The notes: a model not told the origin generated them from the sequence alone. A stretch of DNA of 64,000 nucleotides from Candidatus Latescibacterota bacterium (GCA_965204375.1 OZ241986.1:608001-672000), one strand, 5' to 3'. Positions 25,202 to 49,104 are shown, counted from the first letter of the stretch. Translations and numbers: made by a program.

Positions 25202-25234
25202 TGTTCGAGGTATTTTACTAATTGAGAAAAAATA

Positions 25235-25268: not shown

Positions 25269-25294
25269 ACTTCGATCGTGGGCCTCACCAATAC

Positions 25295-27001: not shown

Positions 27002-27850
27002 ATGACACCTAACTTTCTGCACATCGGCGCATCGAAATGCAAATCATCCTGGCTGTATCGGGTCTGTCTTGAACACCCGGACATCTATGTACCAGGCGAT
27101 GGGTATGATAACGTGAATTTTTTCGTGAACACCTACCACCGCGGTATGGACTGGTATGAGGAAACCTTTTTTGATGGGTGGAACGGTGAATCGGCCATCG
27201 GGGAGTTCAGCAATTCCTACATGCCCTTTGAACCGGCACTGGAGAGGATCTCGAGAACACTACCAGATGTGAAGCTGACCATGACCTTGATGAACCCCGT
27301 TCACCGGGTGTTCTACCAATGGGCTCACCGCAATGTGAAGCCGAAATGCACAGTCACGTTATTTGGCGAGCGGCGGCGGGTCAGTCCGCTCGACGTCCAG
27401 GCATTGCTGAATCGATGCGGAATGGACCCTGGGCGCGGGCTATTTGAGATGCCTGACCGTCTCTTGCATCACCATGGACACGGCCTGTTTCGCCAACTTG
27501 CAGAAGGTTGTTTCTATGCCTTTTGCCTGAAGCGGGTCTACCGATACTTTGATCAGAGCCATGTGCTCGTTTTGCTCTACGATGACTTGCTTTTGGATCA
27601 GGATGCGTTCCTGGGCCGCTTCTATGACCACATCGGTGTCCCGCACCGTTCGAGTATGTTGAAACCAGAGGCTGTGAATCCGGACCCACCGCTCACGGAG
27701 CATGAGAATTGGTTCCCATTCGCGTTGCGGCGGGAGTTGACAGATGCTTTCCGAGACGACATCGAAGACCTGCAAGAGATGCTTGGCCGCGATCTGAGTG
27801 CCTGGCTGGATCCGAAGCATCTGCCCGAGTATGCGACCCGAGAACGCTAA
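27002..27850 (+). CDS. Sulfotransferase domain protein
   Basis: PNFLHIGASKCKSSWL (5'-PSB-like), GMDWY, GEFSNSY, LMNPVHRVFY. Confidence 0.8.
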   Translation: MTPNFLHIGASKCKSSWLYRVCLEHPDIYVPGDGYDNVNFFVNTYHRGMDWYEETFFDGWNGESAIGEFSNSYMPFEPALERISRTLPDVKLTMTLMNPVHRVFYQWAHRNVKPKCTVTLFGERRRVSPLDVQALLNRCGMDPGRGLFEMPDRLLHHHGHGLFRQLAEGCFYAFCLKRVYRYFDQSHVLVLLYDDLLLDQDAFLGRFYDHIGVPHRSSMLKPEAVNPDPPLTEHENWFPFALRRELTDAFRDDIEDLQEMLGRDLSAWLDPKHLPEYATRER

Positions 27851-27891
27851 GTCGAATCGCTAGAGACCGCAGTCCCTTGACGGTATCTATA

Positions 27892-29253: not shown

Positions 29254-29468
29254 GCACCAACTCCTTTCATAAAGATTCAAAAGACCATGTAGTCGGCCTC
29301 AAAATACACAATCAAAAGTCTTCCCACAATGTCCAAGTGGCTTCATGTCCCTTTCGCAAAGTATTAAGACCTTTTGAGACATTGTGTATTGGTGTCTGGC
29401 TGGATATCATAAATAACAGAATGGAAAGCTCTTGAACATCAACCCTTAAAAAATGGGGGGTAATCGTT

Positions 29469-30806
29469 ATGACCGGTGGTTTTGGATCAGGATCGAATCA
29501 AGTCGAAGCCAGTGATCAGCCAAATTTTATTATTCTTTACGCTGACGATCTCGGTTGGCCAGGATTATCAGTATTAATGGATGAACGCGTGCCTGATTCT
29601 AAAAGTGACTACTATCAGACACCAAACCTCGAACAACTGGCAAAACAGGGCGTGGTTTTTAGCAATGGTTATGCGGGTTCTCCGGTTTGTTCTGCCTCAC
29701 GCGCAAGTTTGCTAACCGGAATGACTACCGCAAAGCATGGGCTGACTGCATTGGTTGGTTGGAAGGGGCAGAACCGTGATGACAGTGTACTGATGGGAAC
29801 ACCTAATAAAACAAACGATATTCAGCCTTATACGACACTACCTGAGCAGCTTAAAAAGATTGATTCAAGTTATGTGACTGCTCACTTTGGTAAATGGCAC
29901 CTTCAGTCTGGAGGGCCCGGTTCTAACGGTTTTGATGAAAGTGATGGTCCCACTGGCAATAGAGAGGGTAATACTGAAGATGGAGGGGATGACCCCAAGC
30001 AAACCTTCAGTATCTCCAGAAGAGGAATTGAATTTATGAAACAGTCGGTTAGCGAAAACCGGCCCTTTTACTTGCAACTTTCATACTATGCCGTCCATCT
30101 GCAAATGATAGCACTGCAAAAAACCCATGAAAAATACAAGGCCTTGCCCAAGGGTACTAAACACGACCATCCACTGTATGCTGCCATGACAGAAGATCTT
30201 GATACTGGCGTCGGAATGGTTCTAAGTGCCGTAAGAGAATTGGGAATCACAGAAAACACATACATTGTATTCACTTCGGATAATGGCCCTTATGTCAATC
30301 GTAGAGAGGGAGAGATAAGCAGTGCGTTACCTTTAAAGGAAGGTAAATTCTTTGTTTATGAAGGAGGCATTCGTGTTCCCTTTATTATTTCTGGTCCTAA
30401 TATTAAGCCAGGAGAAATATCTCATGTTACGGTGACACAGTATGATCTGTTTCCGACTGTCTGTGATTTGGCTGGTGGACATTGGCCTGAGGAAGTAGAT
30501 GGCGGAAGTCTGCGGCATACTTTGCATAACGACATCCAAGGAAAGGTGAAACGTCCAAGCGATTATCTTGTTTGGCACTATCCTCATTTCAATCGTCAAG
30601 CCAATCCTCATTCTGCCGTTATTTTTGAAAATTATAAATTGCTGCGTTTTTGGGAAGACGAGACCCTTGAACTTTTCGACTTAGAAAAGGATCCATTTGA
30701 ACTGAAGAATATTGTTAATGAGAAACCAGAATTAGCACAAAAATTACTTTCAGAAATGGATCAATATATCGCTAAAGTTGATGCATTAGTCCCGAGAAGA
30801 AAATGA
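29469..30806 (+). CDS. Sulfatase
   Basis: PNFIILYADDLG, CSASR, GKWHL, SDNG, YEGGIRVP. Confidence 0.92.
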   Translation: MTGGFGSGSNQVEASDQPNFIILYADDLGWPGLSVLMDERVPDSKSDYYQTPNLEQLAKQGVVFSNGYAGSPVCSASRASLLTGMTTAKHGLTALVGWKGQNRDDSVLMGTPNKTNDIQPYTTLPEQLKKIDSSYVTAHFGKWHLQSGGPGSNGFDESDGPTGNREGNTEDGGDDPKQTFSISRRGIEFMKQSVSENRPFYLQLSYYAVHLQMIALQKTHEKYKALPKGTKHDHPLYAAMTEDLDTGVGMVLSAVRELGITENTYIVFTSDNGPYVNRREGEISSALPLKEGKFFVYEGGIRVPFIISGPNIKPGEISHVTVTQYDLFPTVCDLAGGHWPEEVDGGSLRHTLHNDIQGKVKRPSDYLVWHYPHFNRQANPHSAVIFENYKLLRFWEDETLELFDLEKDPFELKNIVNEKPELAQKLLSEMDQYIAKVDALVPRRK

Positions 30807-31158
30807 AACGAGAGAGTGCCATTGGCCTATCATGCAAACGCTTCTCGTTCCAGTTGTTAATGATAGTGACTGCGATGAGCTGTACAATTTCTGATCAACA
30901 TAAAAGTAGGTGATGGTATAAAATAGAAGTCAGGTTCTTGGCGATGCACGAAAGTGGGAAGACATTCCAAACCCAGACGAATATATGTTAGACAGGCTGG
31001 ATCAGTAGCTTTTTAGCGGGTTGGGGAAATCTCTGACTAATCAAACATTCTCCTACAATATGATAAATATCGATAATGTTTTAGCTTCTTGCATGTCTTG
31101 AGAATAGTTTCATATCCGTGGAAAGGCAATGACAACCGTGAAGAAAGGAACTGTATCG

Positions 31159-33045
31159 ATGAAGGATCAGACCCCGGAAGCCATCCTGGGCGAATTTGAA
31201 AAGCGGGTGGATGCCATGTTTCGCGCTGAGGCAGGAGAGCCGTTGGTGCGCGCCAAGAAGCAGAAACCACTCGGCCCGGAACGCGGTAACTACGTCCGCG
31301 CCTACTCCTATTCCATCATGGCGTTTGCCGCGCGCTGTCTGTATCTAGGCGAGATGCTGGATGAGGCAAATGCCGCGCTGATCGAGAATGCACAGCACTA
31401 CCTTGACAATCCGCGGGACATCAACGACCGCGACAGTTTCCACTGGCATGCGGAAATCGTCATGCGGCTGATCGAGATGTACGGCACCAACGGGACGGAG
31501 CATCCTGGCCGCATCACCAAAGAAACCGAGGTCCTCGCGCTCAAACCGATCTGGCTCTATGCGAAAATGTGCTCGTGGCTAAGCAAGGCGGAGGTCGTGG
31601 ACTCGCAGACCTGGCACATTTACGGGTCCGAGAACCATCATGCCATGGACTTCACGGTGAATTGGCACTTCTCCAAGCTCGCCAGGGACCTGCCCGAATA
31701 TAGGAACCTCAAGTTTGATGACGGTGCCACGGCCGAGGATCACTACCGCGCCTGGAACGAGTACTTCATCGCTTACTGCCGGGAACGGGCCCGCAAGAGC
31801 CTGTGTATCGAAATGATGAGCGATGGATATAACGCCACGCTGATCAGGGGATTCTATAACTTCTACGACTTCGGTGATCCACCAGTACAGCGCTCGGCCG
31901 GGATGTTCCTCGATCTCTACTTTGCTTACTGGGCGCAAGAGCAGATTGGTGGGCATATGGGTGGCGGCGGGTCGCGCAGAAAGGGGGAGAAAGCGTTCTA
32001 CCAGAACCGGGATCACGGAAACGCTCCGTTGGCCTGGTTCTACTTCGCCATCGGCAAGCAACCAACGGTCAATGGTCATGACGTCAACGCCGCACTCAGC
32101 GCTTACCGCCCCCCGACCGTAGTGGCCGATATCGCGTCCGACGTAAAGGGACGCGGCCGCTACGAAGTGCGACAGCGTACACAGGGTCTCGGGAAACAAG
32201 GCCATTCGTTTCCCATGGTGGCAGTTGCGAGCAAAGCGCCGAATCAATTACGAACCGACGGTGGTGGCATTCTGCGCTACAGTTTCTGTGACCCTGCCTT
32301 CATCTTGGGTACCCCAATGACCGAGGCGCGACCGCTGTCCGATTGGGTTGCGATCAGCGCACAGAATCGTTGGCAGGGTGTGATCTTTGCTGGCGAAGAC
32401 GATGCCCGCATCGTTCCTCTTGTGCGTCCCGAGGACAACAAGGTCGTTCTCAATGCTCAGTGGTCCGTCCAAAGCAAGGGTAGCCTGATCACACAGAAGC
32501 TCAAGTACCACAAGGGTGGCGCCGAGCTGAACGTCTGGATGTCGGAAAAAGGCTTGAGCGCACCAGTTGAGGAAGATGGTGTGGTATTTGTGGAAGCAGA
32601 AGGAGCATGGGCAGCTATTCGCGTGTCCGATGGAGGCTTCATGTGGAAGGATGGCTCATACACCGTCAAGGCTGAGGATGGCAGTACACGTAAGACACCT
32701 CCCGGAAGGATTATGGCGCTTAAGGGCGAATACGCCTCCGTCATTCTCGAGGTTATGGCCAAGAGCGATCTCGATAGCTTCGACACGTTCAAAGCGAAGG
32801 TAAAAGGTTGTGAGATGAGCATGGATGGAGCCATTCTTAGATACACCACGATCTACAGCGACCTGTTGACCTTCGACACCAGCTTTGAGAAAACGCCCAG
32901 CATTAACAGCAAGCCCGTCAACTACGCCCCGAAGATGGTCTTTGAAAGCCCTTTCCTCAATGCCGACTACGATCGTGGTATTGTGACCATCAGCAAGGAG
33001 GCTCGGAAGAAGGTCCTTGACTTCAACAAGAACACACAGGAGTAG
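31159..33045 (+). CDS. Large hypothetical protein, possibly polysaccharide lyase-like (alpha/alpha plus beta)
   Basis: Long ORF with SENH and E..SDGY motifs reminiscent of heparinase-like lyases; function not established. Confidence 0.55.
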   Translation: MKDQTPEAILGEFEKRVDAMFRAEAGEPLVRAKKQKPLGPERGNYVRAYSYSIMAFAARCLYLGEMLDEANAALIENAQHYLDNPRDINDRDSFHWHAEIVMRLIEMYGTNGTEHPGRITKETEVLALKPIWLYAKMCSWLSKAEVVDSQTWHIYGSENHHAMDFTVNWHFSKLARDLPEYRNLKFDDGATAEDHYRAWNEYFIAYCRERARKSLCIEMMSDGYNATLIRGFYNFYDFGDPPVQRSAGMFLDLYFAYWAQEQIGGHMGGGGSRRKGEKAFYQNRDHGNAPLAWFYFAIGKQPTVNGHDVNAALSAYRPPTVVADIASDVKGRGRYEVRQRTQGLGKQGHSFPMVAVASKAPNQLRTDGGGILRYSFCDPAFILGTPMTEARPLSDWVAISAQNRWQGVIFAGEDDARIVPLVRPEDNKVVLNAQWSVQSKGSLITQKLKYHKGGAELNVWMSEKGLSAPVEEDGVVFVEAEGAWAAIRVSDGGFMWKDGSYTVKAEDGSTRKTPPGRIMALKGEYASVILEVMAKSDLDSFDTFKAKVKGCEMSMDGAILRYTTIYSDLLTFDTSFEKTPSINSKPVNYAPKMVFESPFLNADYDRGIVTISKEARKKVLDFNKNTQE

Positions 33046-33172
33046 AACTGAGCGAACGGATTGTCGTGATGATTCAGCTTCCCTATCCATTGTTTTTTAT
33101 AATTGTTTTTCTTGCTATTTGCCAAAAAATAACTATAATTCTCATTTAATAATCATTTTTCCGGGATGTGCT

Positions 33173-34690
33173 ATGGCTAAACATCATCAAAATCAATCGC
33201 TATACAGGCTCGCGGGGTATGCGGCACTGATTGAACAGTATGACCTCGACGTCATCCCGAATTGGCACACGTCTATGGTGACTATTAGAGGAATCCACAG
33301 GATTGATTCCCTCGGGGGGATCATCAAAGAAGTCTATCCAGCCCGGTACTGGCCCGGGGAGACATTGGGCGACCATCTGGAATTTGCGCTCAAATACGAT
33401 GGGACGAATCTCGCAATTCTCGCCAGCTTGTTCCAGAAAGTATCAGAGGGTGATTTCCTCGACTATGTCTGCTCGAAACCGACCGGTAAGTATGCCAGGC
33501 GACTGTGGTTTTTCTATGAGTTCCTGACCGGAAAGATACTCCCGCTGGATGACCTGAACCGGGGAAATTACATCGATCTCCTCGAACCGGATGCCTATTA
33601 TACGGTCGAGCCTGCCCTCAAGGTTCGCCGTCAGCGGATCAACAATAATCTGCCTGGTGAACGCCGATTCTGTCCCACAATTCGTCGTACAGATATTTTT
33701 CGAGACTTTGAAGCGAAAGCGTTGCATACCAGATGCCAGCAAGTCGTGTCTCGATACGCGCCAGAATTGTTGAAACGCGCGCTCAGCTACCTGTACACCA
33801 AGGAAACGAAATCGTCTTATGAAATCGAACGCATCAATCCTTCCTCAACCCGAACCGAACGCTTCATAGCCCTGCTCCAACTGGCCGAGCAAGAGGATTT
33901 TTGTCGAAAACCTCGGTTGATTGACTTACAGAACCGCATCGTTGACGCCCGGTTCCAGGATCCCGACTATCGAATGACCCAAAATTATGTCGGTCAAACT
34001 GTGGCCTATCAGAGAGAGCATATCCACTTTGTGGCCCCAAAGCCCGACGATTTAGCTGGTCTTATGGAAGGTCTCATAGCCACCCACAAACGCATGGAAG
34101 CCGGTGCTGTCCCACCCGTGATTCAAGCTGCTGCCATTGCCTATGGATTCGTCTTTCTACACCCTTTTGAGGATGGCAATGGTCGTATCCACCGCTTCTT
34201 GATCCACAATATTCTCGCTCGGCGGGGCTTTACACCCGAAAGCGTTATGTTTCCCATATCGGCGGTCATGCTGAAGAATCCATCCGACTACGACGCTTCC
34301 TTAGATGCATTCTCCCGACAACTCATGCCTCTGGTGGAATACACTCTGGAACAGGATGGGCGCTTGACTGTGCATAACGATACCGCGATATGGTATCGCT
34401 ATATCGACCTGACCACCCAGGCAGAGGCTCTGTTTCGGTTTATCGACCAGACCATTGATACCGAACTCGCCGACGAACTGGCCTTCTTGGCCAACTACGA
34501 TGCGGCCAAACAAGCGATCCAAAATACCGTAGATATGCCCGACCGGCAGATAGATCTTTTCATTCGCTTCTGTCTCCAAAACAACGGCCGCCTGTCCGCA
34601 CGAAAACGCACAAGCCACTTTGATCATCTGACGGATGAAGAAATCGATGCTATGGAACAGGCTGTGCAATTTCCTGAGCGGTCTTCTTGA
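33173..34690 (+). CDS. Fic family protein
   Basis: HPFEDGNGRIHR Fic motif; inhibitory-type SSYEIE upstream. Confidence 0.92.
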   Translation: MAKHHQNQSLYRLAGYAALIEQYDLDVIPNWHTSMVTIRGIHRIDSLGGIIKEVYPARYWPGETLGDHLEFALKYDGTNLAILASLFQKVSEGDFLDYVCSKPTGKYARRLWFFYEFLTGKILPLDDLNRGNYIDLLEPDAYYTVEPALKVRRQRINNNLPGERRFCPTIRRTDIFRDFEAKALHTRCQQVVSRYAPELLKRALSYLYTKETKSSYEIERINPSSTRTERFIALLQLAEQEDFCRKPRLIDLQNRIVDARFQDPDYRMTQNYVGQTVAYQREHIHFVAPKPDDLAGLMEGLIATHKRMEAGAVPPVIQAAAIAYGFVFLHPFEDGNGRIHRFLIHNILARRGFTPESVMFPISAVMLKNPSDYDASLDAFSRQLMPLVEYTLEQDGRLTVHNDTAIWYRYIDLTTQAEALFRFIDQTIDTELADELAFLANYDAAKQAIQNTVDMPDRQIDLFIRFCLQNNGRLSARKRTSHFDHLTDEEIDAMEQAVQFPERSS

Positions 34691-34877: not shown

Positions 34878-35708
34878 TTATCCAGATACAGGTTTACCTA
34901 ACGGCATTATCCCAGTATAGAAACCGAGAACGTCAGGACGGTCTCCAAATGCGTCTATGTGATAAAATTCATTAAACTTGATATCTCTGTCATATAAATC
35001 TTTAAGCACTTCAAATCTCATATTGAAAAACAGAGAATACTTTTCGATCATTTCTGAAAGCTGTTCACTCTCTATTATCGGGGGCTGTTCACACCATTCT
35101 TCGTCCATGCAGAGTAATAAAAGTGTTTCTACTGCATTCTCTGGCATTTGGTCACGCAGAACATCAGCATAAAATTTTTTAGAATTTTCATCGAATTTAG
35201 CATCCTCAATTACTTTCAGAATTTTAATTAGAAATAAAAAATAAGACTTTATAACAGTGCTTAAATATACCGTATATTGTCCGTATTTTTTTTTGTCATG
35301 CAAAACCCATTGGATAACATTATCAAAAACCTCTGCTCCCCGTGCCTGTGAGCCGGTAAATACCTCTATTGAATAGTATTTACTATCAAATAGTCCTGTG
35401 AGATAAAAAAATGTGCGTTCAAATGTCTCCTTTTCCAATGATTGTCTCTGTCCCCTTAATTCGTCTTGTTGGAGTGCAATTTCTTGCCGCTGAAGTGCCA
35501 AGGTGACAATAACCCCCCAAAAGGCGAAAGCTGTGAACAATGCATTGACGACTCCAAACGAATCTCCGAATTGCCCTTGATCGGATATTTTAGGAAAGTT
35601 CTTAAATTCTATTATAAATACTACCAAAGCCAAGTAACCTAAAAAAACCAAGATAATAATACCAAACGTCACCCAGCACCACCGAGGTATTCTAACACTG
35701 TCTTTCAA
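34878..35708 (-). CDS. Putative phage abortive infection protein (putAbiC-like), two TM helices
   Basis: GQFGDSFG, coiled coil, FERTFF, FYADVLRDQ, IEKYSLF. Confidence 0.7.
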   Translation of the reverse strand: MKDSVRIPRWCWVTFGIIILVFLGYLALVVFIIEFKNFPKISDQGQFGDSFGVVNALFTAFAFWGVIVTLALQRQEIALQQDELRGQRQSLEKETFERTFFYLTGLFDSKYYSIEVFTGSQARGAEVFDNVIQWVLHDKKKYGQYTVYLSTVIKSYFLFLIKILKVIEDAKFDENSKKFYADVLRDQMPENAVETLLLLCMDEEWCEQPPIIESEQLSEMIEKYSLFFNMRFEVLKDLYDRDIKFNEFYHIDAFGDRPDVLGFYTGIMPLGKPVSG

Positions 35709-36230: not shown

Positions 36231-37088
36231 TTACAATACTGACCATCGTTCTTGCATGAACTCCTTTATTTTTTTTCCGTAGCGCACAAGATTTTTCAGT
36301 TTTGCGCCCACTTCAGGATCAATCTTTGGACCAGCGTGACTCGAAGAATAGAAACGCCCATACGGAAAGTACGACCGCAACCAATAGACGCTCCTGTTAT
36401 CTCCCTTTAGATTCACGATACGCGCGATGGAATTAACGATGCCTTGTACACTCTGGACTGCGGTTTGCTGGACAATTTCATCAAAAACATGCTGTTCTGC
36501 CTGATCGTGTGCGTTATTACCTTGGGTAACGATCACATCGGGCTTAAGAATACGCAATTCCTTCCTGAGATAAGGACCACAATTTTGGTACATTCTGTAG
36601 GGTTCTTGATTTGTTCCACCTGCGCTGGAACAACACTTCGCTGTTCTCACATGAACGAAGAGTTGCTCAATTATTCTTGTACTCTCGTCTCCAAAGCCCT
36701 CTGCAGGAGCTAGTTCAATGAAGGCATGAAGAAGGCTCCGGACTGTCGTTGTAGTTCCCCGCCAGTGCGGATTCAACGCCATACTCTCTGGAGAAGAAAA
36801 ATCCGGCTTTGGAGCGGACAAGGAGACAACCACGATACGGGGTATGCGATGGCCATTGTAATTTCTTTCTCTATAGTATTGGCTAACGGTAACGCCCTCT
36901 GTCCGAGCTAAAAAGTGAACGTTTCCTTGTGAGGCTTCTTGGCAGGCATCCCGACAACTATCTTTATTAGGACAACGGAAGGCCGCAAATATGGCGTCGA
37001 GGTTGCCAGGCGTAACAGGTATATCAGTAATAGGTGTAATACCAACGTCCTCGTAATACTGATTGAGTTTTCTTTGTATTTTATTCAT
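36231..37088 (-). CDS. Uracil-DNA glycosylase-like protein
   Basis: TAKCC...NCGPYLRKELRILKPDVIVTQG. Confidence 0.6.
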   Translation of the reverse strand: MNKIQRKLNQYYEDVGITPITDIPVTPGNLDAIFAAFRCPNKDSCRDACQEASQGNVHFLARTEGVTVSQYYRERNYNGHRIPRIVVVSLSAPKPDFSSPESMALNPHWRGTTTTVRSLLHAFIELAPAEGFGDESTRIIEQLFVHVRTAKCCSSAGGTNQEPYRMYQNCGPYLRKELRILKPDVIVTQGNNAHDQAEQHVFDEIVQQTAVQSVQGIVNSIARIVNLKGDNRSVYWLRSYFPYGRFYSSSHAGPKIDPEVGAKLKNLVRYGKKIKEFMQERWSVL

Positions 37089-37318
37089 AGCCAAAATTTC
37101 TCCGGTCAAGTCCCAAAAGTTCTGTAAAAAGATAGCTTTGTGATAGGGGGTAGTGATTTTGTTTCAAGTACGTCATGTCCAGATAACGTCTGCCTGAGAT
37201 CCACTCGTCAGACCATTCCATACACAATGCGCCGATAGCCTACGAAGCAAATGATTCTATACGGAAAGCTGCATCAATCATAGGCTTGAAACTCAAGCTC
37301 TAAATATTCCACCAAAAC

Positions 37319-39095: not shown

Positions 39096-39331
39096 TCGTA
39101 ATCTCACCTTTAAACGGCGATGCCTCAAAAAGTGCATGGGGTTTAATCTGAAAAGACAACCGGGCGGTGTCCGATACAACGGACGCCGCTCTTATGTTTT
39201 CATCCAGTTTTGCAGTAATTTTTCCTCCATAGTAAACTCCCCTTTTTCAACAAGTTACGGATGGTCAGGGAATCAAATTATATAATTCTCGTTTTGACAA
39301 GCGGAGCAAAAATTATGCCAACTTTTATAAA

Positions 39332-39449
39332 TAGACTTGCCCCGTTTTAGTGGATAATAGCATAAATCGCCCATCACCTATGAAAAACTGATGGCTCAGG
39401 ATGATGGGGTTGAAACTTCTACACTATACACTCAAACGGAGTAATTCCA
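39332..39449. mobile_element. IS3-derived miniature element (MITE-B)
   Basis: TAGACTTGCCCCG...CGGAGTAATTCCA; interior reads HKSPITYEKL like an IS3 transposase tail; related copies at 46929, 47375, 51308. Confidence 0.7.
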
Positions 39450-39572
39450 AACATCATCCTTCGTTGCTTTGGTCGCATAGAATTTGGCAACAGCATCCAA
39501 AATGCGTCAAGTCCAGTCTATAAAAACTGCTTACCGCCATTTACCGCCATTAAAGATTTACCATCCTCTCCC

Positions 39573-39601
39573 TTGACCCTTTTATCACTCCTGACTATAA
39601 T
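39573..39601 (+). promoter_or_regulatory. Sigma70-type promoter of the four-gene operon
   Basis: TTGACC-17 nt-TATAAT. Confidence 0.7.
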
Positions 39602-39664
39602 ATCTCATATTTTCATCTGTCCTGAGCAGGCATCTCATGCAACTGAATCAAGGAGACTTTCGAA

Positions 39665-40534
39665 ATGGTCGTGAAGACGAGCACCGTAACCTATCGTGCC
39701 CTGAGCTTAGGGGCTGGCGTACAGAGTTCTGTTTTAGCACTCCTCCTATCGAGGTCCCACCCCCGTTTGGTTGAGTTGGGCTATCCCAAACCTGACGTTG
39801 CCGTCTTCGCTGATACTGGATGGGAGCCAGATTATGTATATCAACATTTGGACTGGCTTGAAGAGCAACTCCAATATCCACTGATTCGCGTGTCCGAAGG
39901 TGATCTAAAGACTAATCTTAAAAAAGCCCGCACGGTGTCGGGTCACAACTTTGTTGATGTTCCCTTATTCACGGTCAATGGGGATGGGAAGAAGGGCATG
40001 TTACGGCGGCAATGCACCACTCACTACAAAATTAAGCCTATTTATCGACGGGTCAGGGAACTTGCGGGAGGACAGCGCGGCCGACCATTTCCCAAGAACA
40101 CCCACGCCGAAATGTGGATCGGAATTTCGCTGGATGAGGTGGGCCGCATGAAGCCGAGCCGGGAACGATGGGTCGAACATCGCTGGCCGCTAGTGGATAT
40201 TGGTATGACACGCCAAGATTGTGTTGAATGGTTTAATTCTGAATATCCAGGTCGCCACCTGCCCCGGTCAGCTTGCGTCATCTGTCCTTATCGTTCAGAC
40301 GAACATTGGCTGGAACTGAAGCAGTCTGAACCAGATAGCTACGAGGAGGCTGTGCATTTTGATCGATGGCTTCGCCATAGTACAAAGAATCCTGTAAGGG
40401 AATTGCTACATGGCCGGCCATATCTACATGCTGCACGTCGTCCCCTTGATAGCGTTATTGATGAGCAAGAAGCAGAGGGCGGGAGAGAGATCAATCACTT
40501 TGAAAACGAATGCGAAGGCCTTTGCGGTGTCTGA
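39665..40534 (+). CDS. PAPS-reductase-like adenine nucleotide alpha-hydrolase with Cys motifs
   Basis: SLGAGVQS PP-loop variant, FADTGWE, RQCT, SACVICPY, terminal ECEGLCGV. Confidence 0.8.
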   Translation: MVVKTSTVTYRALSLGAGVQSSVLALLLSRSHPRLVELGYPKPDVAVFADTGWEPDYVYQHLDWLEEQLQYPLIRVSEGDLKTNLKKARTVSGHNFVDVPLFTVNGDGKKGMLRRQCTTHYKIKPIYRRVRELAGGQRGRPFPKNTHAEMWIGISLDEVGRMKPSRERWVEHRWPLVDIGMTRQDCVEWFNSEYPGRHLPRSACVICPYRSDEHWLELKQSEPDSYEEAVHFDRWLRHSTKNPVRELLHGRPYLHAARRPLDSVIDEQEAEGGREINHFENECEGLCGV

Positions 40535-41774
40535 AACAGAGGTAGAAACGGTCAGGCCGAAGTTCCCGCTATATCCCTACCAGCGGCAGGTATTAACTGA
40601 CATCTTTCGTGCCCTATCATCTCCTGATCGTCGAGCCGTAGCTCATCTTCCTACCGGTGCGGGAAAGACTAGAATCGCAGCCCACGCGGCCTGTCACTTG
40701 CTCAACAAAAAAGACACCGATGAGTCCCTTGTCATCTGGTTAGCGGCTACTGAGGAACTTTGCGAACAAGCGGCAAATCAACTCTCTGACGCCTGGACAT
40801 ATCTGGGACGGCGGGATGCCTCCATTCATCGAAACTGGGGAAGCCGGTCGCTTGATCTACGGCGTCTTTCATCCGGATTCTTGGTGACTGGTCTCGCCAA
40901 ACTGCGCTTTGCTGCATTCCAAGACAATACCCTTCTTGCACACCTTGCGAACTGTACTGCTGCCGTCATCTTTGACGAGGCTCATCAGGCAGTTGCAGAA
41001 ACCTACTCTTTCATAACTGAGCAGCTATGCAGTGTTAGGCCGCCTCTCCTTGGTCTTACGGCCACGCCGGGACGCACAGCAAATCTGACCGATGACGACT
41101 ATCGACTTGCCGACATGTTCAATCACAAAAAGGTTTCGATAGATCCAAGGGGTCACGATAGCCCCGTTACCTACCTGATCCAGAATCGCTACCTTGCCGA
41201 TCCCCGCTTTGTGCCGATCAGCTTCGACTCCGATACCGTAATTACTGATCCTCAACCCGGTATGGATTATAGTATTCATGAGCTGGACGACCTGGGTCGC
41301 AACCGCGAGCGTACGATAAAAATAGTCGAACTCACAGAGGATGCAGTTAGACGTCACCCTCGTACAATTGTTTTTTCCCCTTCTGTTGGAAGTGCTGTGG
41401 AATGCAACAGACTTCTCCGGAGTAAAGGAGTTGCAAGTGCAGTGGTAACTGCCAATACACCAGGTGAAGATCGTCGATCTATTGTTGATGACTTTAGGAG
41501 TGACAGCAGGGAGCATAAAGTGGTGTTCAACTATGGCGTGCTTACCGCCGGTTTTGACGCGCCCAGGACTCGTTGCGTCATTATCGCCCGGCCTACCACA
41601 TCACTGGTACTCTACTCACAAATGGCAGGTCGAGCGATGCGCGGGCCCAGGGCTGGAGGAAATCCAAAAGCCGAGATACTCACCGTTGCAGATACGAACC
41701 TTCCGGGTTTCGGGTCTGTTACAGATGCATTCACGAATTGGGAGGAACTATGGTCGAACAACTCAACGACCTAA
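40527..41774 (+). CDS. SF2 DEAH helicase
   Basis: LPTGAGKT, DEAH, TAT, GFDAP, QMAGRAMR; GTG start overlaps upstream stop. Confidence 0.92.
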   Translation: MSETEVETVRPKFPLYPYQRQVLTDIFRALSSPDRRAVAHLPTGAGKTRIAAHAACHLLNKKDTDESLVIWLAATEELCEQAANQLSDAWTYLGRRDASIHRNWGSRSLDLRRLSSGFLVTGLAKLRFAAFQDNTLLAHLANCTAAVIFDEAHQAVAETYSFITEQLCSVRPPLLGLTATPGRTANLTDDDYRLADMFNHKKVSIDPRGHDSPVTYLIQNRYLADPRFVPISFDSDTVITDPQPGMDYSIHELDDLGRNRERTIKIVELTEDAVRRHPRTIVFSPSVGSAVECNRLLRSKGVASAVVTANTPGEDRRSIVDDFRSDSREHKVVFNYGVLTAGFDAPRTRCVIIARPTTSLVLYSQMAGRAMRGPRAGGNPKAEILTVADTNLPGFGSVTDAFTNWEELWSNNSTT

Positions 41775-43603
41775 GAGATGCAGATCGCAGCCTATTTCCC
41801 AGCAGCTACACCATACGAGCTCTTCGAGATAGTAGGTATCATAACACCGCGTATGCCATAGCAGAACTCATAGATAACTCAATAGAGGCAGATGCCGAAC
41901 AGATTGATCTCCTTTGCTTGGAACGCTCGCAGCGGGTAGGGTCTCAGACCCGGTGGCGAGTGTCTGAAGTGGCTGTCTTGGACAATGGTTCAGGAATGAG
42001 CGTGAAGACCCTCTTTGACGCTCTTAAGTTTGGAGGAGGAACCCGGCATAACTCAAATAGGGGAATTGGAAAATACGGCATGGGACTCCCAACTTCGTCA
42101 ATGTCGCAATGCAAAAGGGTGGATGTATGGACCTGGCAAGACGGTATTGATTCAGCGTGGCACTCCAGCATCGACGCCGACGATATTGAGCAAGGTAATC
42201 ATGAGGTTCCCATTCCTGATCAAGACACATCTATACCGGAGGTGTGGAAAACGGCCGGCAGTGACAAAATCTATGAAAGCCTCTCAGGGACTCTTGTAGT
42301 GTGGAGCAAACTGGACAAAATGCAATGGAAAACCGGCCGTACAATTATCGACAACGTTTCCAGAGAGGTAGGGCGCATCCACCGGTACTGGATTGATGCG
42401 GAGATGACAAGAATACGAGTTGGTTCTTTCCACTCTAACCGCCCTGGCGAAATTGAGAATGAAGGGTATATTGTCTCAAATGATCCTCTCTACCTGATAA
42501 AACCTTCGTCTACTCCTGTGCCTTGGAACAACGAACCGATGTTTAGCGAATGGGCTAAGAAAGAGTATCCCCTTACTGCGGAGGGTAAAGAGATCACTAT
42601 TGAGGTGAAGTATTCAATTGTGAGGCCCGAGGCCCTAAAAACAGATAGTGTTAGACAGTATCCAGGCAGCACTGATTATGGCAAGCACGCCAGACATAAC
42701 ATTGGTGTCTCAGTCATTCGGGAGGATAGGGAGATCGTTCTTGAGGACGCCTTTCTCAGAGAGGGGGGTAGTGATGAAAATCCCCTGAACCGCTGGTGGG
42801 GTTGTGAAGTGCATTTCCGTCGAAGTTGCGATGAGTTGTTTGGCGTGGATCACAACAAGCAGATGGCTGCGAACTTCACGCATGCTGCAAAGACGCTCGC
42901 GCGTGATGATCGCCCCAATCAGGTCATACTAGACGAGATGGGAATTGACGATGACATCATCTACAAAATCGTAGGAGATATCCGTGATCAAACGCGTGCC
43001 ATGATGCGTCAAATCGCACAGATGTTTGCACAACGGAGGGACTCACAGAATGGGGGTGGCAGTAGAAGCCCAGAAATTAAGGCTGTAGAGACTGCCACTG
43101 ATGCAGACCGAGACGCTATAACGGCCGGTATAGAGACACCAACCGGCACTGATAAAGACCGTGAGCAAATTCCATCCGAAGAGCGAGAAGCCGGTCTTAC
43201 GGAACAGTTCATTGAATCTGGTCAGGACGGTCAGGAAGCCCAAAAACTCGCAAAGATGCTGGTAGAGCAAGGTCTCTCATATCAATTCAATCCAGCTCAA
43301 CTTGACGGATATCAGATGTTTAATGTGCGCTCGAATCAAGGAGTCCTGCATATCAATCTTAATACTGACCATCCAATCTACAATCTGCTCAAGCATATCG
43401 AAGGTCGTCTTGACGAAAATATTGACGAGAGCCATCCTTTATTTGAGGCCAGTGTCGCTATCCGATTATTACTGTCGTCATGGGCACGAATGGAAGACCA
43501 GACCGAATCACGGGAAGAACGAATGCATATCCAAAACATCAGTATGAATTGGGGGCGCCAAGTAGATAAGGTCATCAATCAACTGCGTGATAGGGACGAA
43601 TAA
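41750..43603 (+). CDS. GHKL ATPase, MORC/HATPase_c_3-like
   Basis: AELIDNS, DNGSGM, GKYGMG, GTLV; GGAGG RBS. Confidence 0.9.
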   Translation: MVEQLNDLRDADRSLFPSSYTIRALRDSRYHNTAYAIAELIDNSIEADAEQIDLLCLERSQRVGSQTRWRVSEVAVLDNGSGMSVKTLFDALKFGGGTRHNSNRGIGKYGMGLPTSSMSQCKRVDVWTWQDGIDSAWHSSIDADDIEQGNHEVPIPDQDTSIPEVWKTAGSDKIYESLSGTLVVWSKLDKMQWKTGRTIIDNVSREVGRIHRYWIDAEMTRIRVGSFHSNRPGEIENEGYIVSNDPLYLIKPSSTPVPWNNEPMFSEWAKKEYPLTAEGKEITIEVKYSIVRPEALKTDSVRQYPGSTDYGKHARHNIGVSVIREDREIVLEDAFLREGGSDENPLNRWWGCEVHFRRSCDELFGVDHNKQMAANFTHAAKTLARDDRPNQVILDEMGIDDDIIYKIVGDIRDQTRAMMRQIAQMFAQRRDSQNGGGSRSPEIKAVETATDADRDAITAGIETPTGTDKDREQIPSEEREAGLTEQFIESGQDGQEAQKLAKMLVEQGLSYQFNPAQLDGYQMFNVRSNQGVLHINLNTDHPIYNLLKHIEGRLDENIDESHPLFEASVAIRLLLSSWARMEDQTESREERMHIQNISMNWGRQVDKVINQLRDRDE

Positions 43604-43605
43604 AT

Positions 43606-44460
43606 ATGTCTATTGGGCCAGGAGATTTGTTGAGCCAGCTCTGTTCAGATGCTCAGGATCTCATCTTGGCGGCACCCTACATCAAGGCTGATGCACTTAC
43701 CAGAGTTCTGACAGATGTTAGTCCGGCTGCGTCCCTCATCTGTATCACAAGGTGGAATTTGCACGACCTCGCTGTGGGGGCGTCCGATACTGAATGTCGC
43801 ACTATTGTCACTGAGCGTGGTGGCTCATTCAGGCTCCATCCCTCACTTCATGCCAAATACTACCGAGTAGATGATATAGTCCTCATCGGATCTGCTAACC
43901 TGACATCGTCCGCAATGGGCTGGTCGCGCCAGCCTAACTTGGAGATCCTTTGTCGTCCAGGAGACAACTTTGATGCATACGCCTTTCAGCAGGGACTTCT
44001 GGAAGGATCGAGAGAAATAGGCAATGACGAATTCGCACGTTGGGAATCCATAACTGAAATCAGTACGCAGAGTAACAGCGTAATTACTGACGACCAACCT
44101 CAGCTTGACAACTGGCGACCAGCGACTCGTGATTTTAGGAATTTAGAACTCTCATATCAAGACAGAGAAGATGAGATAGCTTCATTCGACGAGCAACGAG
44201 CGGCGCAGCACGACATCCAAGCTCTCCGAATCCCTCCAGGATTGACCGATGAGCAGGTCCGAATGTGGGCATCGGCTTGTTTACTTGCCGCTCCCTTCAC
44301 TAACACCGTGATAGGATTGTATAACATGGAAGTCCCAAGAGCATCTCGCTCAATTGCTGAGACCTATAACCTTGATGTTACTGAGGCAAGAAGAGCCATG
44401 GAAACGGCACAGAACTGGCTCGCATTCCTCACCCCTGAGACATTATTCAGAAATCCTTAA
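43606..44460 (+). CDS. Phospholipase D-family putative nuclease
   Basis: APYIK, single HKD-type motif LHAKYY...IGSANLT...NLE. Confidence 0.85.
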   Translation: MSIGPGDLLSQLCSDAQDLILAAPYIKADALTRVLTDVSPAASLICITRWNLHDLAVGASDTECRTIVTERGGSFRLHPSLHAKYYRVDDIVLIGSANLTSSAMGWSRQPNLEILCRPGDNFDAYAFQQGLLEGSREIGNDEFARWESITEISTQSNSVITDDQPQLDNWRPATRDFRNLELSYQDREDEIASFDEQRAAQHDIQALRIPPGLTDEQVRMWASACLLAAPFTNTVIGLYNMEVPRASRSIAETYNLDVTEARRAMETAQNWLAFLTPETLFRNP

Positions 44461-44590
44461 ATTGGATGAAATAGGTGGAGTGTTTAGGACTTACTCCTAC
44501 TTCTCGGAGATATTGGCAAAAATTGCGGATCACCTCGAGTACACAACAAAAGCCCGTCGATCATCACCGATTGACGGGCTTTCTTTTACA

Positions 44591-45091
44591 ATGAAGCAGA
44601 TAGATCAAGTTCAGCGAGAAGATATTTTTGGCTCCCCAACTGATTCATTTACTGAATCTTTCTGTGTGTGGGATCATTTCCCCATCCATCACTTCCGCAG
44701 GAACAAGAAGCCTATTATCGCAATCGGACATGAGCCACAAAAACAATTGGTTCCCCAAAAACTACACCATCCCAATTATCTCAAAAAAGCCTTGTATTAT
44801 CACGAGATTCTTGAAAAGGGCTATGTTCAGTCTCAGACTGCACTTGCCGAACAGGTGGGCATTTCGAGAACCAAAACTCGCTTGATTCTACGGTTGCCCA
44901 AACTGGATAAAAAAATTAAAGATTTTATTCTGAAGATAGATGACTCAGACCCTAAATTGGATTTCCTATCTGTATATCGGTTGCAGCCATTACTCCAGGT
45001 TAAAAACAAAGAGAGACAGAGAAGGGAATTTTGGCAAATGATTGAGGAGCAATATCCAGACCAAAGTGCCTGTGAGCAGGTGGCAGACTGA
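44591..45091 (+). CDS. Recombinase-associated HTH protein within direct-repeat copy 2; start uncertain
   Basis: KALYYHEILEKG..SQTALAEQVGISRTKTRLILRL. Confidence 0.5.
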   Translation: MKQIDQVQREDIFGSPTDSFTESFCVWDHFPIHHFRRNKKPIIAIGHEPQKQLVPQKLHHPNYLKKALYYHEILEKGYVQSQTALAEQVGISRTKTRLILRLPKLDKKIKDFILKIDDSDPKLDFLSVYRLQPLLQVKNKERQRREFWQMIEEQYPDQSACEQVAD

Positions 45092-45448: not shown

Positions 45449-46471
45449 ATGACAACCATTGTTACGTTTGCAACGAAAGACGTTATTGTAATGGGCAGTG
45501 ATAGTCTCGGCACTGCCAGTCGTCCCGTAATTGATCCTGTCAAGCTATATTCGCATTTTGACAAAGAGGGCAATTTAAAAACTGACTTGAAAAATTTCAA
45601 TTTTTGGAAGGACGTTTATTCAGACCGAGAAGAAGTCCCTTATAGCCACATGGCACACATGGATAAACTTTTTCGACTACGTGATAATATTGGAGTTTTG
45701 ACTGCTGGCATTGTAAGCATTGGCAACGTGACGATAAAAAGCATCATCCGCGAGGTAGCTACAACAGGAGTCAGTGGGTGTGAGGAAGTGGTTGAAAAAT
45801 TAATTGACAAAATCAGACCACATTACGAAAAACAATATTCTGAATCACACCATAAACCAAACATTGAGCTTATGGTTGCAGGGTGGGATAACAGCGACCT
45901 GACCAAGCCCCAAATTTATCGGATAAAATTTCCTTATCTGCTAACGGAGTCGTTTGATGATCCCGATGACGCACTGCCAGAAAACAGGTTAGAACTGAGG
46001 CAGGAATATGGTATATATTTTGGTGGACAATTCCGAGAAATAGCACGCCTTGTACACGGCACAGACGTTGAAAATATGCGCGAAATCCAAACCCGCCATA
46101 TAGACCTTTTAAAGCGTTTTGCTGGTGACATTAAAAAATTAAACCCTAAAAAAAAGATTAAAGTACCAGATTTATTAAAGGATGATTCTGGCAGGTTTGA
46201 TATGTTTGGCCCCATAGACCCTGACAATCCCAAAAGTAGAGATTGGCAGCTTAGTGGTCTTGAGGCTACTTGTGGTGACTTTTCTGACCAAAACGCCATA
46301 AACTGTGTATACTGGCTTATTGATCTTATGATCAAAGTTCAAGAATTTGGGGATACTATGCCCACAGTCGGGGGAGATATTCACATCGCAATCATCGACA
46401 AAAAGACAGGATTTAAATTTCTTTCTCAGGAGTCCTATAATCTTCAAGGCCACAAGACACCTAAAATTTAA
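45449..46471 (+). CDS. Proteasome-beta-like Ntn hydrolase
   Basis: M-TTIVTF...VMGSDS, DKLF, ELMVAGW, C-terminal TVGGDIHIAII. Confidence 0.75.
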   Translation: MTTIVTFATKDVIVMGSDSLGTASRPVIDPVKLYSHFDKEGNLKTDLKNFNFWKDVYSDREEVPYSHMAHMDKLFRLRDNIGVLTAGIVSIGNVTIKSIIREVATTGVSGCEEVVEKLIDKIRPHYEKQYSESHHKPNIELMVAGWDNSDLTKPQIYRIKFPYLLTESFDDPDDALPENRLELRQEYGIYFGGQFREIARLVHGTDVENMREIQTRHIDLLKRFAGDIKKLNPKKKIKVPDLLKDDSGRFDMFGPIDPDNPKSRDWQLSGLEATCGDFSDQNAINCVYWLIDLMIKVQEFGDTMPTVGGDIHIAIIDKKTGFKFLSQESYNLQGHKTPKI

Positions 46472-47703: not shown

Positions 47704-49104
47704 ATGGGAAAATTAAATGTGGAAAATAGGACATTGTTCACTTATGACAACCTGTCTGTGATGCAGGGCATTAACAGTGAAACGATTGATTTGATTTACC
47801 TGGATCCGCCGTTTAACTCAAAGCGTAATTATGCAGCTCCTATTGGATCACAAGCTGCGGGAGCTGCTTTCAAGGATACGTGGAATCTTGATGATATTAA
47901 GCGCGAATGGGTAGAGGAAATAGAGGCAGATAATAAAGCGACATGGGCATCAATAGTCTCTGCTGGTCATATAAGCGGTGAAAGTACACAAGCATATTTG
48001 ACGTATATGGCGATCAGACTTATCGAGATGCGCCGAATTTTGAAACCAACAGGCAGTATATATCTGCACTGTGATCCTACGGCAAGTCACTATCTGAAAC
48101 TTTTAACGGATGCCGTTTTTGGACAGCAAAATTTTCGAGCAGAAATTACGTGGCATCGTTCTGCGGAAAATTTGTCAAACAAAAAATGGCGACGGGCTTT
48201 TGAAACATTATTTTATTATTCAAAAGGGAAATCGTGGACTTGGAATCAAATTTTTGAGCCGCTCTCTGAACAGGTATTGACGAGAGATTATCGCTTCGAG
48301 GATGGGCGGGGACGCTACAAGACGACGGCTTGCACAAACAATGCACACCGCCCGAATATGTTTTATGAGTTTAATGGCAACACTCGACAATGGCGATATT
48401 CCAAAGAAACCATGATGAGATATGATCGGGAAGGCATGTTGGTCTATAACAAGGAGGGTATCCCCCGCCGTAAACTTTATCTTTCGGATGTTCAGGGGAC
48501 AAAACTGACTAATGTATGGTCAGATATAAAAGTCTTAGCCAGTAATGCAAAAGAGAAAACGGGGTACCCCACGCAGAAGCCCCTCGCTCTTTTAGAGCGC
48601 ATTATTGAAGCGTCGTCAAATCCGGGCGATATGGTACTCGATCCCTTCTGTGGTTGTGCTACAACCTGCATAGCTGCGGAGAAATTGGAGCGACAATGGG
48701 TTGGCATAGATATTGAGCCAGAAGCCCGCAATCTTGTTATTCAGCGATTGGAAAAAGAGATTGATGTAGATGCTCTTTTCAAGGCTGGTGGTGGCGCATT
48801 GCCCGATGTAATTCATAGAAAGACACCGCCTAAGCGTACAGAAAAAGATGCCCCCCGGCGATCTTCTAATATAAAAATGAAGTTATACAAGTTACAGGAG
48901 GGACGTTGTAATGCCCCATGTGGAGAGGATGAGCAAGGGCGGGCGTTCCCTATTGATATATTTGAGATTGACCATATACGCCCCAGGTCTAAAGGCGGTG
49001 CGGATGTTGATGAGAATTTACAGTTGTTGTGTCCCACTTGTAATGGGCGTAAAGGGAATCGTACGATGGGATATTTGTTGGATCTGTTAAGTCAAGAATC
49101 ATGA
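47704..49104 (+). CDS. N6/N4 DNA methyltransferase (beta order) fused to a C-terminal HNH domain
   Basis: YLDPPF, YPTQKP, DPFCGCAT; EIDHIRPRSKGG..NLQLLCPTCN. Confidence 0.92.
   Translation: MGKLNVENRTLFTYDNLSVMQGINSETIDLIYLDPPFNSKRNYAAPIGSQAAGAAFKDTWNLDDIKREWVEEIEADNKATWASIVSAGHISGESTQAYLTYMAIRLIEMRRILKPTGSIYLHCDPTASHYLKLLTDAVFGQQNFRAEITWHRSAENLSNKKWRRAFETLFYYSKGKSWTWNQIFEPLSEQVLTRDYRFEDGRGRYKTTACTNNAHRPNMFYEFNGNTRQWRYSKETMMRYDREGMLVYNKEGIPRRKLYLSDVQGTKLTNVWSDIKVLASNAKEKTGYPTQKPLALLERIIEASSNPGDMVLDPFCGCATTCIAAEKLERQWVGIDIEPEARNLVIQRLEKEIDVDALFKAGGGALPDVIHRKTPPKRTEKDAPRRSSNIKMKLYKLQEGRCNAPCGEDEQGRAFPIDIFEIDHIRPRSKGGADVDENLQLLCPTCNGRKGNRTMGYLLDLLSQES

Follow-up and report, generated by a model that had tools for sequence, protein, structure and literature searches.

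A mobile four-gene cassette of Candidatus Latescibacterota joins a phage-type PAPS-reductase-like gene to a helicase, MORC-like ATPase and PLD nuclease trio: probably a minimal modification-restriction unit

Main

Can one PAPS-reductase-like gene of the type carried by phages and plasmids take the place of a whole DNA sulfur-writing module? The question is raised by a four-gene cassette in a genome of Candidatus Latescibacterota bacterium (GCA_965204375.1), which we analysed within a window of 64,000 nt (OZ241986.1:608001-672000); coordinates are positions in this window unless another contig or locus is named. Lettered in order, the genes encode a 3'-phosphoadenosine-5'-phosphosulfate (PAPS)-reductase-like protein (A), a superfamily 2 (SF2) helicase (B), a GHKL/MORC-like ATPase (C) and a phospholipase D (PLD)-family nuclease with a single HKD motif (D), all on the plus strand. 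Open reading frame (ORF) calling placed them, intact and co-oriented, at 39665-44460. A preliminary description, made by a model from this sequence, had read them as an operon encoding a candidate undescribed DNA-modification defence system. We find that the cassette is probably a self-contained, horizontally mobile modification-restriction unit of the phosphorothioate (Ssp/Dnd) kind in minimal form. Its logic is probably that of phosphorothioate-type modification and restriction; the additions are a so far unnamed restriction trio and a proposed phage-type writer made of a single gene.

The four genes travel as a unit between phyla

A search of one-genome-per-species contigs with protein A recovered 17 other loci, and in every one of them B, C and D occur in the same order. 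The loci lie in metagenome-assembled genomes labelled Latescibacterota, Rhodothermaceae, Chloroflexota/Dehalococcoidia/Tepidiformaceae and Alphaproteobacteria (at least four phyla). Their flanks are unrelated to one another and consist mostly of housekeeping genes; no fifth conserved gene emerged among the 88 of 145 flanking ORFs that were scanned. Protein A is 71-97% identical across these loci, pointing to recent transfer between phyla. The four-gene unit of the preliminary description, and the conserved neighbourhood by which it had proposed to check that unit, are therefore both found.

The source genome (one contig, 6.34 Mb, 96% complete) holds a second copy of the cassette on the minus strand at C1:4552676-4557471, which like most other copies sits between housekeeping genes. 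Alignment by blastn gave 90.5% identity over 4969 bases, corresponding exactly to 39514-44472 of the window, and these limits define the edges of the module. The proteins of the two copies are 98% (A), 94% (B), 84.5% (C) and 92.6% (D) identical. The copies are mosaic: they are 92-100% identical outside 41900-43100 and 67-87% identical within it, a block that covers the N-terminal two thirds of C. The upstream flank of the second copy resembles that of locus L002, which itself joins A and B like those of the second copy to C and D like those of the window, suggesting recombination between cassette alleles.

We then compared 19 cassettes, namely that of the window, the second copy and the 17 other loci. 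The ratio of non-synonymous to synonymous substitution (dN/dS) was 0.06-0.18 for all four genes against seven other cassettes (18 of 28 gene pairs, for which dS was unsaturated); the four genes are under purifying selection. Gene A has stayed whole in all 19 cassettes, while B or C is broken in three: by an in-frame TAA in C of the second copy, a deletion of about 330 bp in C of L001 and a frame change in B of L013. This asymmetry fits restriction-modification logic but is not significant, as it comprises only three events and A makes up 18% of the coding length of the cassette. The start of C is uncertain in L011, where no standard start codon lies between an in-frame stop and the N-box.

The distribution of the cassette is patchy. 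A homologue of C occurs in 24 of 168 genomes of the phylum and in 8 of 20 genomes of the genus, and close-type C (73-100% identity) was found at 12 places in 11 genomes of the phylum. Metagenomes contain a great many close relatives; in the 120 best clusters, A is 73-98% and C 72-100% identical. Viral contigs yielded a single distant C relative (27% identity), and thus no sign that phages carry the cassette.

The same trio adjoins Ssp genes elsewhere

A tblastn search of plasmids with C returned 55 records, 14 of which cover at least 80% of C at 34-38% identity. In six of the seven plasmids inspected among these 14, co-linear genes for a helicase, an 'ATP-binding protein' and a PLD protein lie within a few kb of a PAPS reductase and other Ssp-type genes. 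On plasmid A of Trichormus variabilis ATCC 29413, for example, genes for DUF4007, an 1168-aa protein, a PAPS reductase, two small ORFs and a DndB-like protein precede the trio (helicase, GHKL, PLD), a cysteine desulfurase gene follows it, and a divergent gene is annotated as 'DNA phosphorothioation-associated putative methyltransferase'. On p.BB_2 of Pannonibacter phragmitetus the order is cysteine desulfurase, DUF4007, ATPase, PAPS reductase, helicase, GHKL and PLD, and similar combinations of Ssp genes and trio occur in Mesorhizobium onobrychidis pOM4, Geminocystis, Roseobacter litoralis and Hymenobacter. The plasmid of Agrobacterium CFBP7129 carries the trio without Ssp genes in the stretch inspected. 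RefSeq gives the plasmid trio generic names only.

Chromosomes of the phylum tell the same story. Distant-type C (33-38% identity) occurs at 14 places, 11 of which were fetched, the other three being on short contigs. At 10 of the 11, SspD-like and SspC-like genes stand beside the trio; nine also have SspB, which in Ssp clusters is the DUF4007 protein, and seven a cysteine desulfurase. Such clusters often contain a DGQHR/DndB-like gene as well. Over their full length, the Ssp-linked relatives in the phylum are 40-46% (B), 33-46% (C) and 25-35% (D) identical to the proteins of the cassette, and those on plasmids 40-43% (B), 34-38% (C) and 32-35% (D). The two trios have the same three genes in the same order and all catalytic motifs in common; the B-C-D trio is orthologous to the trio that adjoins SspABCD genes in many genomes. 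The proposed link of the cassette to sulfur and DNA modification, for which the preliminary description had pointed to the family of A, is much strengthened by these 10 of 11 chromosomal places and six of seven plasmids.

The two settings differ in their neighbours, which are a cysteine desulfurase, SspB/DUF4007, SspC and SspD in one and a single phage-type PAPS-reductase-like gene in the other. They also differ in the ATPase: in a tree of 35 GHKL proteins, the 17 A-type sequences fall on one side and all Ssp-linked sequences on the other (SH-aLRT 100). This was a quick maximum-likelihood tree with long branches and no outgroup, its careful search unfinished, and it does not order the pairings with A and with Ssp genes in time.

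On Agrobacterium pAtCFBP7129b (L033, 5705-17964), where the stretch inspected has no Ssp genes, the third gene beside the helicase-GHKL pair is annotated only as hypothetical; two hypothetical genes and a gene for an FtsK/SpoIIIE-domain protein follow, an order reminiscent of SspFGH.

Protein A stands where the Ssp writer would be

Neither SspB (DUF4007) nor SspC was found in the operon or within 10 kb at the 17 loci. The source genome has no DUF4007 protein, by a search that was positive in three of three related genomes, and no SspC; tblastn with three plasmid sets of SspB and SspC also found nothing there. Its PAPS_reduct-type genes number three, CysH and the two copies of A, and it has housekeeping cysteine desulfurases. 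DUF4007 is missing from 7 of the 11 phylum genomes with an A-type cassette. Thus, A has replaced the whole Ssp writer module in this cassette. One genome (G133) has an A-type cassette and a lone Ssp-type trio (L064); it carries two SspB/SspD modules elsewhere, and nothing can therefore be inferred about reliance of that trio on A.

What kind of protein is A? It matches phrog_424 along the full profile (residues 10-289, E 3.2e-44), and an exhaustive phmmer search placed it in a family of 4255 representative clusters (E <= 1e-3). Nine residues (G16, G18, Q20, S21, R115, C117, C204, C207 and C287) are invariant among 108 family members. Homologues with 33-46% identity are found in 52 phage records and on 196 plasmids; the phages include those of Geobacillus, Pelagibacter HTVC034P, Thermus P23-77, Salisaeta SSIP-1 and mycobacterial prophages. 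These matches bear out the suggestion of the preliminary description that A is of a phage type rather than a DndC. On one Agrobacterium pAt plasmid and one plasmid of Brucella anthropi, the A-type gene follows ardC, an antirestriction gene (DUF1738/zincin-like), directly or after one small ORF, and in a Mesorhizobium phage-plasmid an A-type domain forms the C-terminal part of an annotated cytosine methyltransferase.

The nearest outside relatives of A (47-50% identity) are fusions of about 545 aa with DUF6339, a domain that PADLOC lists as candidate PDC-M33C; another relative (P0259) is fused to a winged-helix domain. A metagenome search with one DUF6339-A fusion (P0124) retrieved only stand-alone A-type genes, in 80 loci, aligned to residues 214-543 or less and mostly from about 270, and no such fusion was found on plasmids. 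DUF6339 was found in 0 of 168 genomes of the phylum, where the control likewise gave nothing, and the literature search found no mention of it.

The model of A (AlphaFold2, pLDDT 93.5) has, with confidence, a PP-loop/PAPS-reductase fold. By VIA-align, its nearest folds are PAPS/adenosine-5'-phosphosulfate (APS) reductases (Z 10.7-11.9), with TilS and the tRNA thiolases NcsA and TtuA effectively tied (Z 10.0-10.5; VIA-align and Foldseek); sequence searches of solved structures with A and D gave nothing useful. SspD was the only PADLOC model to match A at E <= 0.01, and neither DndC nor BrxP did. The SspD match (E 2.9e-15, positions 4-202 of 277) scores 54.7 bits, against 298-424 bits for true SspD genes of related genomes, and A is only 21-25% identical to SspD proteins of Ssp clusters, a likeness at the level of the superfamily and not of the family. 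The two share the motifs FxDTGxE, RxCT, GI(S/R)xDE and RS(A/G)CxxC and a C-terminal cysteine pair. They part at the nucleotide loop, which reads SLGAGVQS in A and SGG[KR]DS in five aligned SspD-like proteins. The loop and tail of A (ECEGLCGV) instead resemble the loop (TAFGASGMV) and tail (ECGIH) of the APS-reductase-type CysH of the same genome. On these motifs, A may bind its nucleotide differently from SspD. A is nonetheless no assimilatory CysH: its PF01507 (PAPS_reduct) score of 19.1 bits lies under the cut-off of 22.5 and its tail is not ECGIH. With a fold nearest to PAPS/APS reductases, it resembles the CysH family without belonging to it.

B, C and D have the make-up of a restriction-type module

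Protein B has ResIII (E 6.8e-20), DEAD and Helicase_C domains (Pfam), and motifs I, II (DEAH), III and VI are intact across the aligned cassettes. Its nearest solved structures are RadD (6jde, E 1.6e-19) and XPB/Rad25.

Protein C matches HATPase_c_3 (E 1.4e-22, Pfam), and its N-box (AELIDNS), G1 (DNGxGM) and G2 (GIGKYGMG) are kept in 16 aligned cassettes and three plasmid homologues. The AlphaFold2 model of C (pLDDT 77.5) shows the predicted architecture of a GHKL domain and S5-type transducer, followed by a helical C-terminal region. Foldseek matched it to Hsp90, SMCHD1 (6mw7), MORC2 (9cdj), MORC3 (5ix2) and MORC4 (7k7t) at E 1e-10 to 1e-12, with low template-modelling (TM) scores of 0.30-0.36 by query length. 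'MORC-like' is thus a justified, safe name for C that leaves MORC proper and paraMORC undivided.

Protein D matches PLDc_2 at E 5.4e-5 (23.5 bits, under the Pfam cut-off of 27) and PADLOC DrmC at E 8.6e-9, and its atlas neighbours are PLD families (score 0.97). The motif LHAKYYR.D....GSANLT is present in 19 of 19 cassettes and three plasmid homologues, and W170, R171, P172, T174 and R175 (WRPxTR) are invariant in the C-terminal part. As each chain has one HKD motif, D would be expected to dimerise. A prediction of a complex of C and D, run without controls, scored 0.00, which is evidence neither for nor against binding.

The cassette matches no named system

Comparison with catalogued systems returned shared domains and no identity. 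PADLOC v2 and NCBIfam r20 gave only domain-level partial or sub-cut-off matches (SspD, PbeA, MzaB and DrmC), with the NCBIfam r20 scores of the trio far under their cut-offs. DISARM, PbeABCD and Mza were rejected as the identity of the trio: the matches cover DrmC residues 11-105, PbeA positions 227-420 of 672 and MzaB 14-171 of 500, and the partners DrmA/DrmB, PbeB-D and MzaA/C-E have no counterpart here. Type 4 BREX and Dpd were rejected on the same ground. Type 4 BREX (BrxP) and Dnd (DndC) do resemble the cassette in using a PAPS-reductase-fold enzyme as a modification component, but BrxC, PglZ, BrxL, DndD and DndE do not appear among the Pfam and PADLOC matches to the operon and its neighbours, and DUF4007 is missing as well.

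SspABCD-SspE and SspABCD-SspFGH also resemble the cassette. In both, a PAPS-reductase-fold protein (SspD) with cysteine motifs found also in A is coupled to a restriction module; the cassette differs in lacking SspA, SspB and SspC and in the nucleotide loop of A. B-C-D is not SspFGH, the three-gene partner already known for SspBCD, as SspF has a Walker A motif and SspH an FtsK/SpoIIIE-like C terminus, unlike the trio (PMC8092258; papers named here by PMC number or DOI are cited from excerpts). PHROG 424 proteins share with A its full length and invariant residues. Their genes, however, stand alone or beside methylases or ArdC and are presumed to act in anti-restriction, whereas the gene for A opens an operon that goes on to a restriction-type trio.

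Operons of a MORC or paraMORC ATPase with an SF2 helicase and a nuclease, including HKD nucleases, were predicted to be restriction systems in 2008 (Iyer, Abhiman and Aravind, PMC2292703). According to the excerpt, they resemble the trio in their parts, namely a GHKL and S5-type ATPase, an SF2 helicase like Rad25/XPB and an HKD nuclease, and differ in being linked to DNA methylases, not sulfur enzymes (PMC2292703). The description of the cassette as undescribed therefore stands in part: it has no name in PADLOC, NCBIfam or the open literature, but the MORC-SF2-HKD operon type had been foreseen (PMC2292703). Our search of the open literature, which did not extend to subscription papers and supplements, found no paper naming the trio or cassette, and neither is mentioned in the excerpts of PMC10853773, PMC12839542, PMC12707154, PMC8569181 and PMC12914056. 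Lists of such neighbours may exist in the supplements of PMC8092258, PMC10853773 and PMC12839542.

How the cassette may act

From the conservation of the cassette, its link to Ssp genes and the protein families, we infer that A marks DNA, what the mark consists of and in which direction the cassette discriminates. Protein A alone, using a sulfur source of the host, would install a sulfur-containing mark, most simply a phosphorothioate, on the DNA of the cell. The sulfur could be supplied by a housekeeping cysteine desulfurase or, given the APS/PAPS-reductase-like loop and C-terminal ECxGxCG tail, by an APS/PAPS-type donor. B would serve as a translocase, C as an ATP-driven GHKL clamp or looping switch and D as an HKD nuclease that needs dimerisation to build one active site; together they would scan DNA and cut or nick what is unmarked, such as phage or plasmid DNA. 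DndFGH and SspFGH are reported to damage unmarked DNA (PMC8092258), and a phage fusion of a PAPS domain with Dam is reported, together with a neighbouring gene, to have brought about escape from Dnd restriction (preprint 10.1101/2021.05.05.442762, referred to as Piel 2022 in PMC13551039); the main reading fits both reports. The confident fold of A, its retained cysteine motifs and the fusions and neighbours of its relatives make it look like an active sulfur enzyme directed at DNA.

We judge the chances to be evenly balanced that A marks self DNA with sulfur and that B-C-D attack unmarked DNA. The narrower proposal, that A is a single-polypeptide DNA sulfur writer working without SspB, SspC or a dedicated desulfurase, we consider doubtful; such a lone writer may use APS/PAPS-reductase-like chemistry (CysH-type loop, Fe-S-type cysteines and ECxGxCG tail) rather than that of an ATP-pyrophosphatase.

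Several points weigh against sulfur marking by A and attack on unmarked DNA by B-C-D. Known phosphorothioate writers are built from three or four proteins, a desulfurase together with DndCDE or SspBCD. The loop of A lacks the Lys and Asp of the ATP-pyrophosphatase motif SGG[KR]DS that SspD keeps, a deviation by which its chemistry may differ, and A has no recognisable DNA-binding or site-recognition domain. None of 80 metagenome loci with an A-type gene, 22 of them at least 8 kb long, has a match to C or D, and A-type proteins mostly occur without the trio. Ssp modules are present elsewhere in 4 of the 11 genomes with an A-type cassette. The PAPS domain of the Vibrio phage anti-Dnd protein could not be shown to belong to the subfamily of A. 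Finally, the direction of discrimination is reasoned rather than observed, for the Ssp-linked trio as much as for the cassette.

Alternatively, A would be no DNA writer. It could act on a nucleotide, tRNA or protein, or be a sensor, regulator or antitoxin, with B-C-D as a modification-independent and possibly abortive effector. LarE and the tRNA thiolases NcsA and TtuA are among the solved folds nearest to A, and the departure of its P-loop from the ATP-pyrophosphatase form and its lack of a DNA-binding domain agree with such a role; some Dnd-linked HKD-SF2 modules may act by suicide instead of by self/non-self marks (Rakesh et al., PMC10853773). The same trio is, however, repeatedly coupled to complete DNA phosphorothioation machinery. 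Relatives of A, moreover, lie among DNA methylases and ArdC in early or leading regions of phage and plasmid genomes and are fused to DNA-binding domains, and the phage PAPS-domain fusion with its neighbouring gene defeats a restriction that reads DNA marks (10.1101/2021.05.05.442762). We therefore regard a role of A outside DNA marking as unlikely.

A further reading keeps A as the writer and reverses the logic of the trio: as in SspABCD-SspE, A would mark host DNA, and B-C-D would need the mark as a platform or activator against invaders. Ssp clusters that hold the trio often carry a DndB/DGQHR (SspE-like) gene, and SspE is reportedly stimulated by phosphorothioate (PMC8092258). A cassette of this kind would be no addiction module, in keeping with its easy gain and loss within the genus (a C homologue in 8 of 20 genomes). 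By contrast, A is retained in all 19 cassettes and B or C is lost to breakage in three, as would be expected if loss of A were harmful, although the events are too few for a test, and enzymes that cut unmodified DNA usually combine an HKD nuclease with an SF2 translocase (PMC2292703; PMC10853773). Sensing of the mark by the trio is, on this evidence, distinctly improbable.

A function in DNA repair or recombination, or as a selfish addiction cassette that serves only its own maintenance, is very improbable. In its favour, the repair helicase RadD is the protein that B most resembles, sets of GHKL, nuclease and helicase recall MutL-UvrD repair (PMC2292703), and the cassette often lies between housekeeping genes rather than in defence islands. 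Against it, the NCBIfam RadD score of B (106) is far below the cut-off of 720, and patchiness within the genus, cross-phylum transfer at about 70-97% identity, mosaicism in C and copies decayed to pseudogenes are features typical of a defence or selfish module and untypical of core repair.

Layout of the cassette and its surroundings

The features of the cassette are collected in Table 1. The open frames of B and C reach further upstream, from 40410 and 41573, respectively. In 15 of the 18 other cassettes, however, the C frame has stop codons 5' of the ATG at 41750, and in 7 of 18 the B frame has stops inside its first 23 codons; these extensions are thereby ruled out, leaving the GTG at 40527 and the ATG at 41750 as the conserved starts. 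The resulting junctions, an 8-bp overlap between A and B, a 25-bp overlap between B and C and a 2-bp gap between C and D, recur with identical geometry in most of the loci and are those given by the preliminary description; the four genes are translationally coupled.

Other elements of that description hold as well. The promoter it proposed, matching the consensus at 11 of 12 positions, is the best of eight promoter-like sites within 39300-44800, a count not above that in shuffled sequences (5.7 +/- 2.3); the site is kept in 7 of 19 cassettes (the window, the second copy, L001-L004 and L008). The terminator-like hairpin that it placed at about 44550 was found by folding and not picked up by the consensus scan. 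It has a 14-bp stem (-23.4 kcal/mol, z -8.05, none of 200 shuffles equally stable) and lies beyond the module edge, homology to the second copy stopping at 44472. The catalytic motifs of B, C and D, described as intact, are complete in every aligned cassette, and the operon contains, as had been stated, no methyltransferase, dndB/D/E or ssp gene.

Table 1. Features of the four-gene cassette in the 64,000-nt window
Feature	Position	Strand	Basis
Conserved mobile module (leader, promoter, four genes)	39514..44472	+	blastn alignment to the genome's second copy
Promoter-like site TTGACC-17-TATAAT	39573..39601	+	11/12 consensus matches
Gene A, PAPS-reductase-like protein of phage/plasmid type, 289 aa; predicted to mark DNA with sulfur	39665..40534	+	
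Gene B, SF2 helicase (RadD/XPB-like), 415 aa from GTG 40527	40527..41774	+	
Gene C, GHKL ATPase with transducer (MORC/SMCHD1/Hsp90-like) and helical C-terminal region, 617 aa	41750..43603	+	
Gene D, PLD-family nuclease with one HKD motif and a conserved C-terminal domain carrying WRPxTR, 284 aa	43606..44460	+	
Terminator-like hairpin followed by a U-run	44549..44582	+	local flank, outside the conserved module

With a GC content of 0.497 (genome, 0.508), the cassette sits in a variable stretch of lower GC content (0.43-0.46), and its PDC-S24 Fic and AbiC-like neighbours are in keeping with a defence role. The stretch starts at 19558-23853 with a Mutator-family transposase gene and a 976-aa ORF (DDE transposase domains, CoiA_N), followed at 24161-30806 by a tandem pair of PhyH-dioxygenase paralogues, an ORF resembling sulfotransferases and two sulfatases; in L003 and L004, too, the cassette has sulfatase genes in its flanks. 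A Fic-domain protein (33017-34690) matches the PADLOC candidate PDC-S24 over its full length (611 bits, E 5e-184), and a 638-aa ORF without Pfam or PADLOC match (31129-33045) overlaps the 5' end of its gene. Two minus-strand genes lie just upstream of the cassette and encode an AbiC-like protein (34878-35708; putAbiC, E 1e-7) and a protein whose UDG-superfamily match is weak and under the cut-off (36231-37109).

An ORF with a ParB-type helix-turn-helix (HTH) comes just after the cassette (44354-45091). It has a paralogous stretch (81% identity) about 26 kb upstream (18368-18784) and a third, partial copy elsewhere in the genome, and may be a repeated mobile-element gene. Further downstream are a 340-aa protein with a proteasome-subunit-like domain (45449-46471, E 1.7e-6), a 36% identical paralogue of which lies at C1:4589585-4590580, about 30 kb from the second cassette copy, and an N6_N4 DNA methylase with an HNH nuclease fused at its C terminus (47704-49104) that is not kept beside other cassettes. 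In L003, 1.6 kb upstream of the intact cassette, fragments like A (residues 71-105) and B (residues 34-114) at 8046-8397 adjoin an HSDR_N-domain ORF and look like the remnant of an older copy.

Discussion

Most SspBCD modules (83.9%) have been reported to be without a known restriction partner (PMC8092258), and the trio beside Ssp genes in cultured strains and many metagenome-assembled genomes would supply one. If the reading of the trio is true, DNA phosphorothioation would have in the helicase, MORC-like ATPase and PLD nuclease a third restriction partner, as yet without a name.

The cassette also bears on an open question, the function of the very common 'PAPS reductase' genes of phages and plasmids. 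In it, such a gene stands with a restriction module that is presumably toxic, which offers a simple genetic test of what A does. If A writes alone, it would be a one-gene tool for the sulfur marking of DNA and would explain how mobile elements escape defences that read phosphorothioates. A would then be the smallest known enzyme to add a phosphorothioate or a new sulfur mark to DNA, and thousands of phage and plasmid 'PAPS reductase' genes would be portable self-marking enzymes that defeat Dnd/Ssp-type restriction. Prokaryotic MORC-like ATPases are, moreover, related to eukaryotic MORC and SMCHD1, and a tractable bacterial system that reads DNA marks would be of wider interest.

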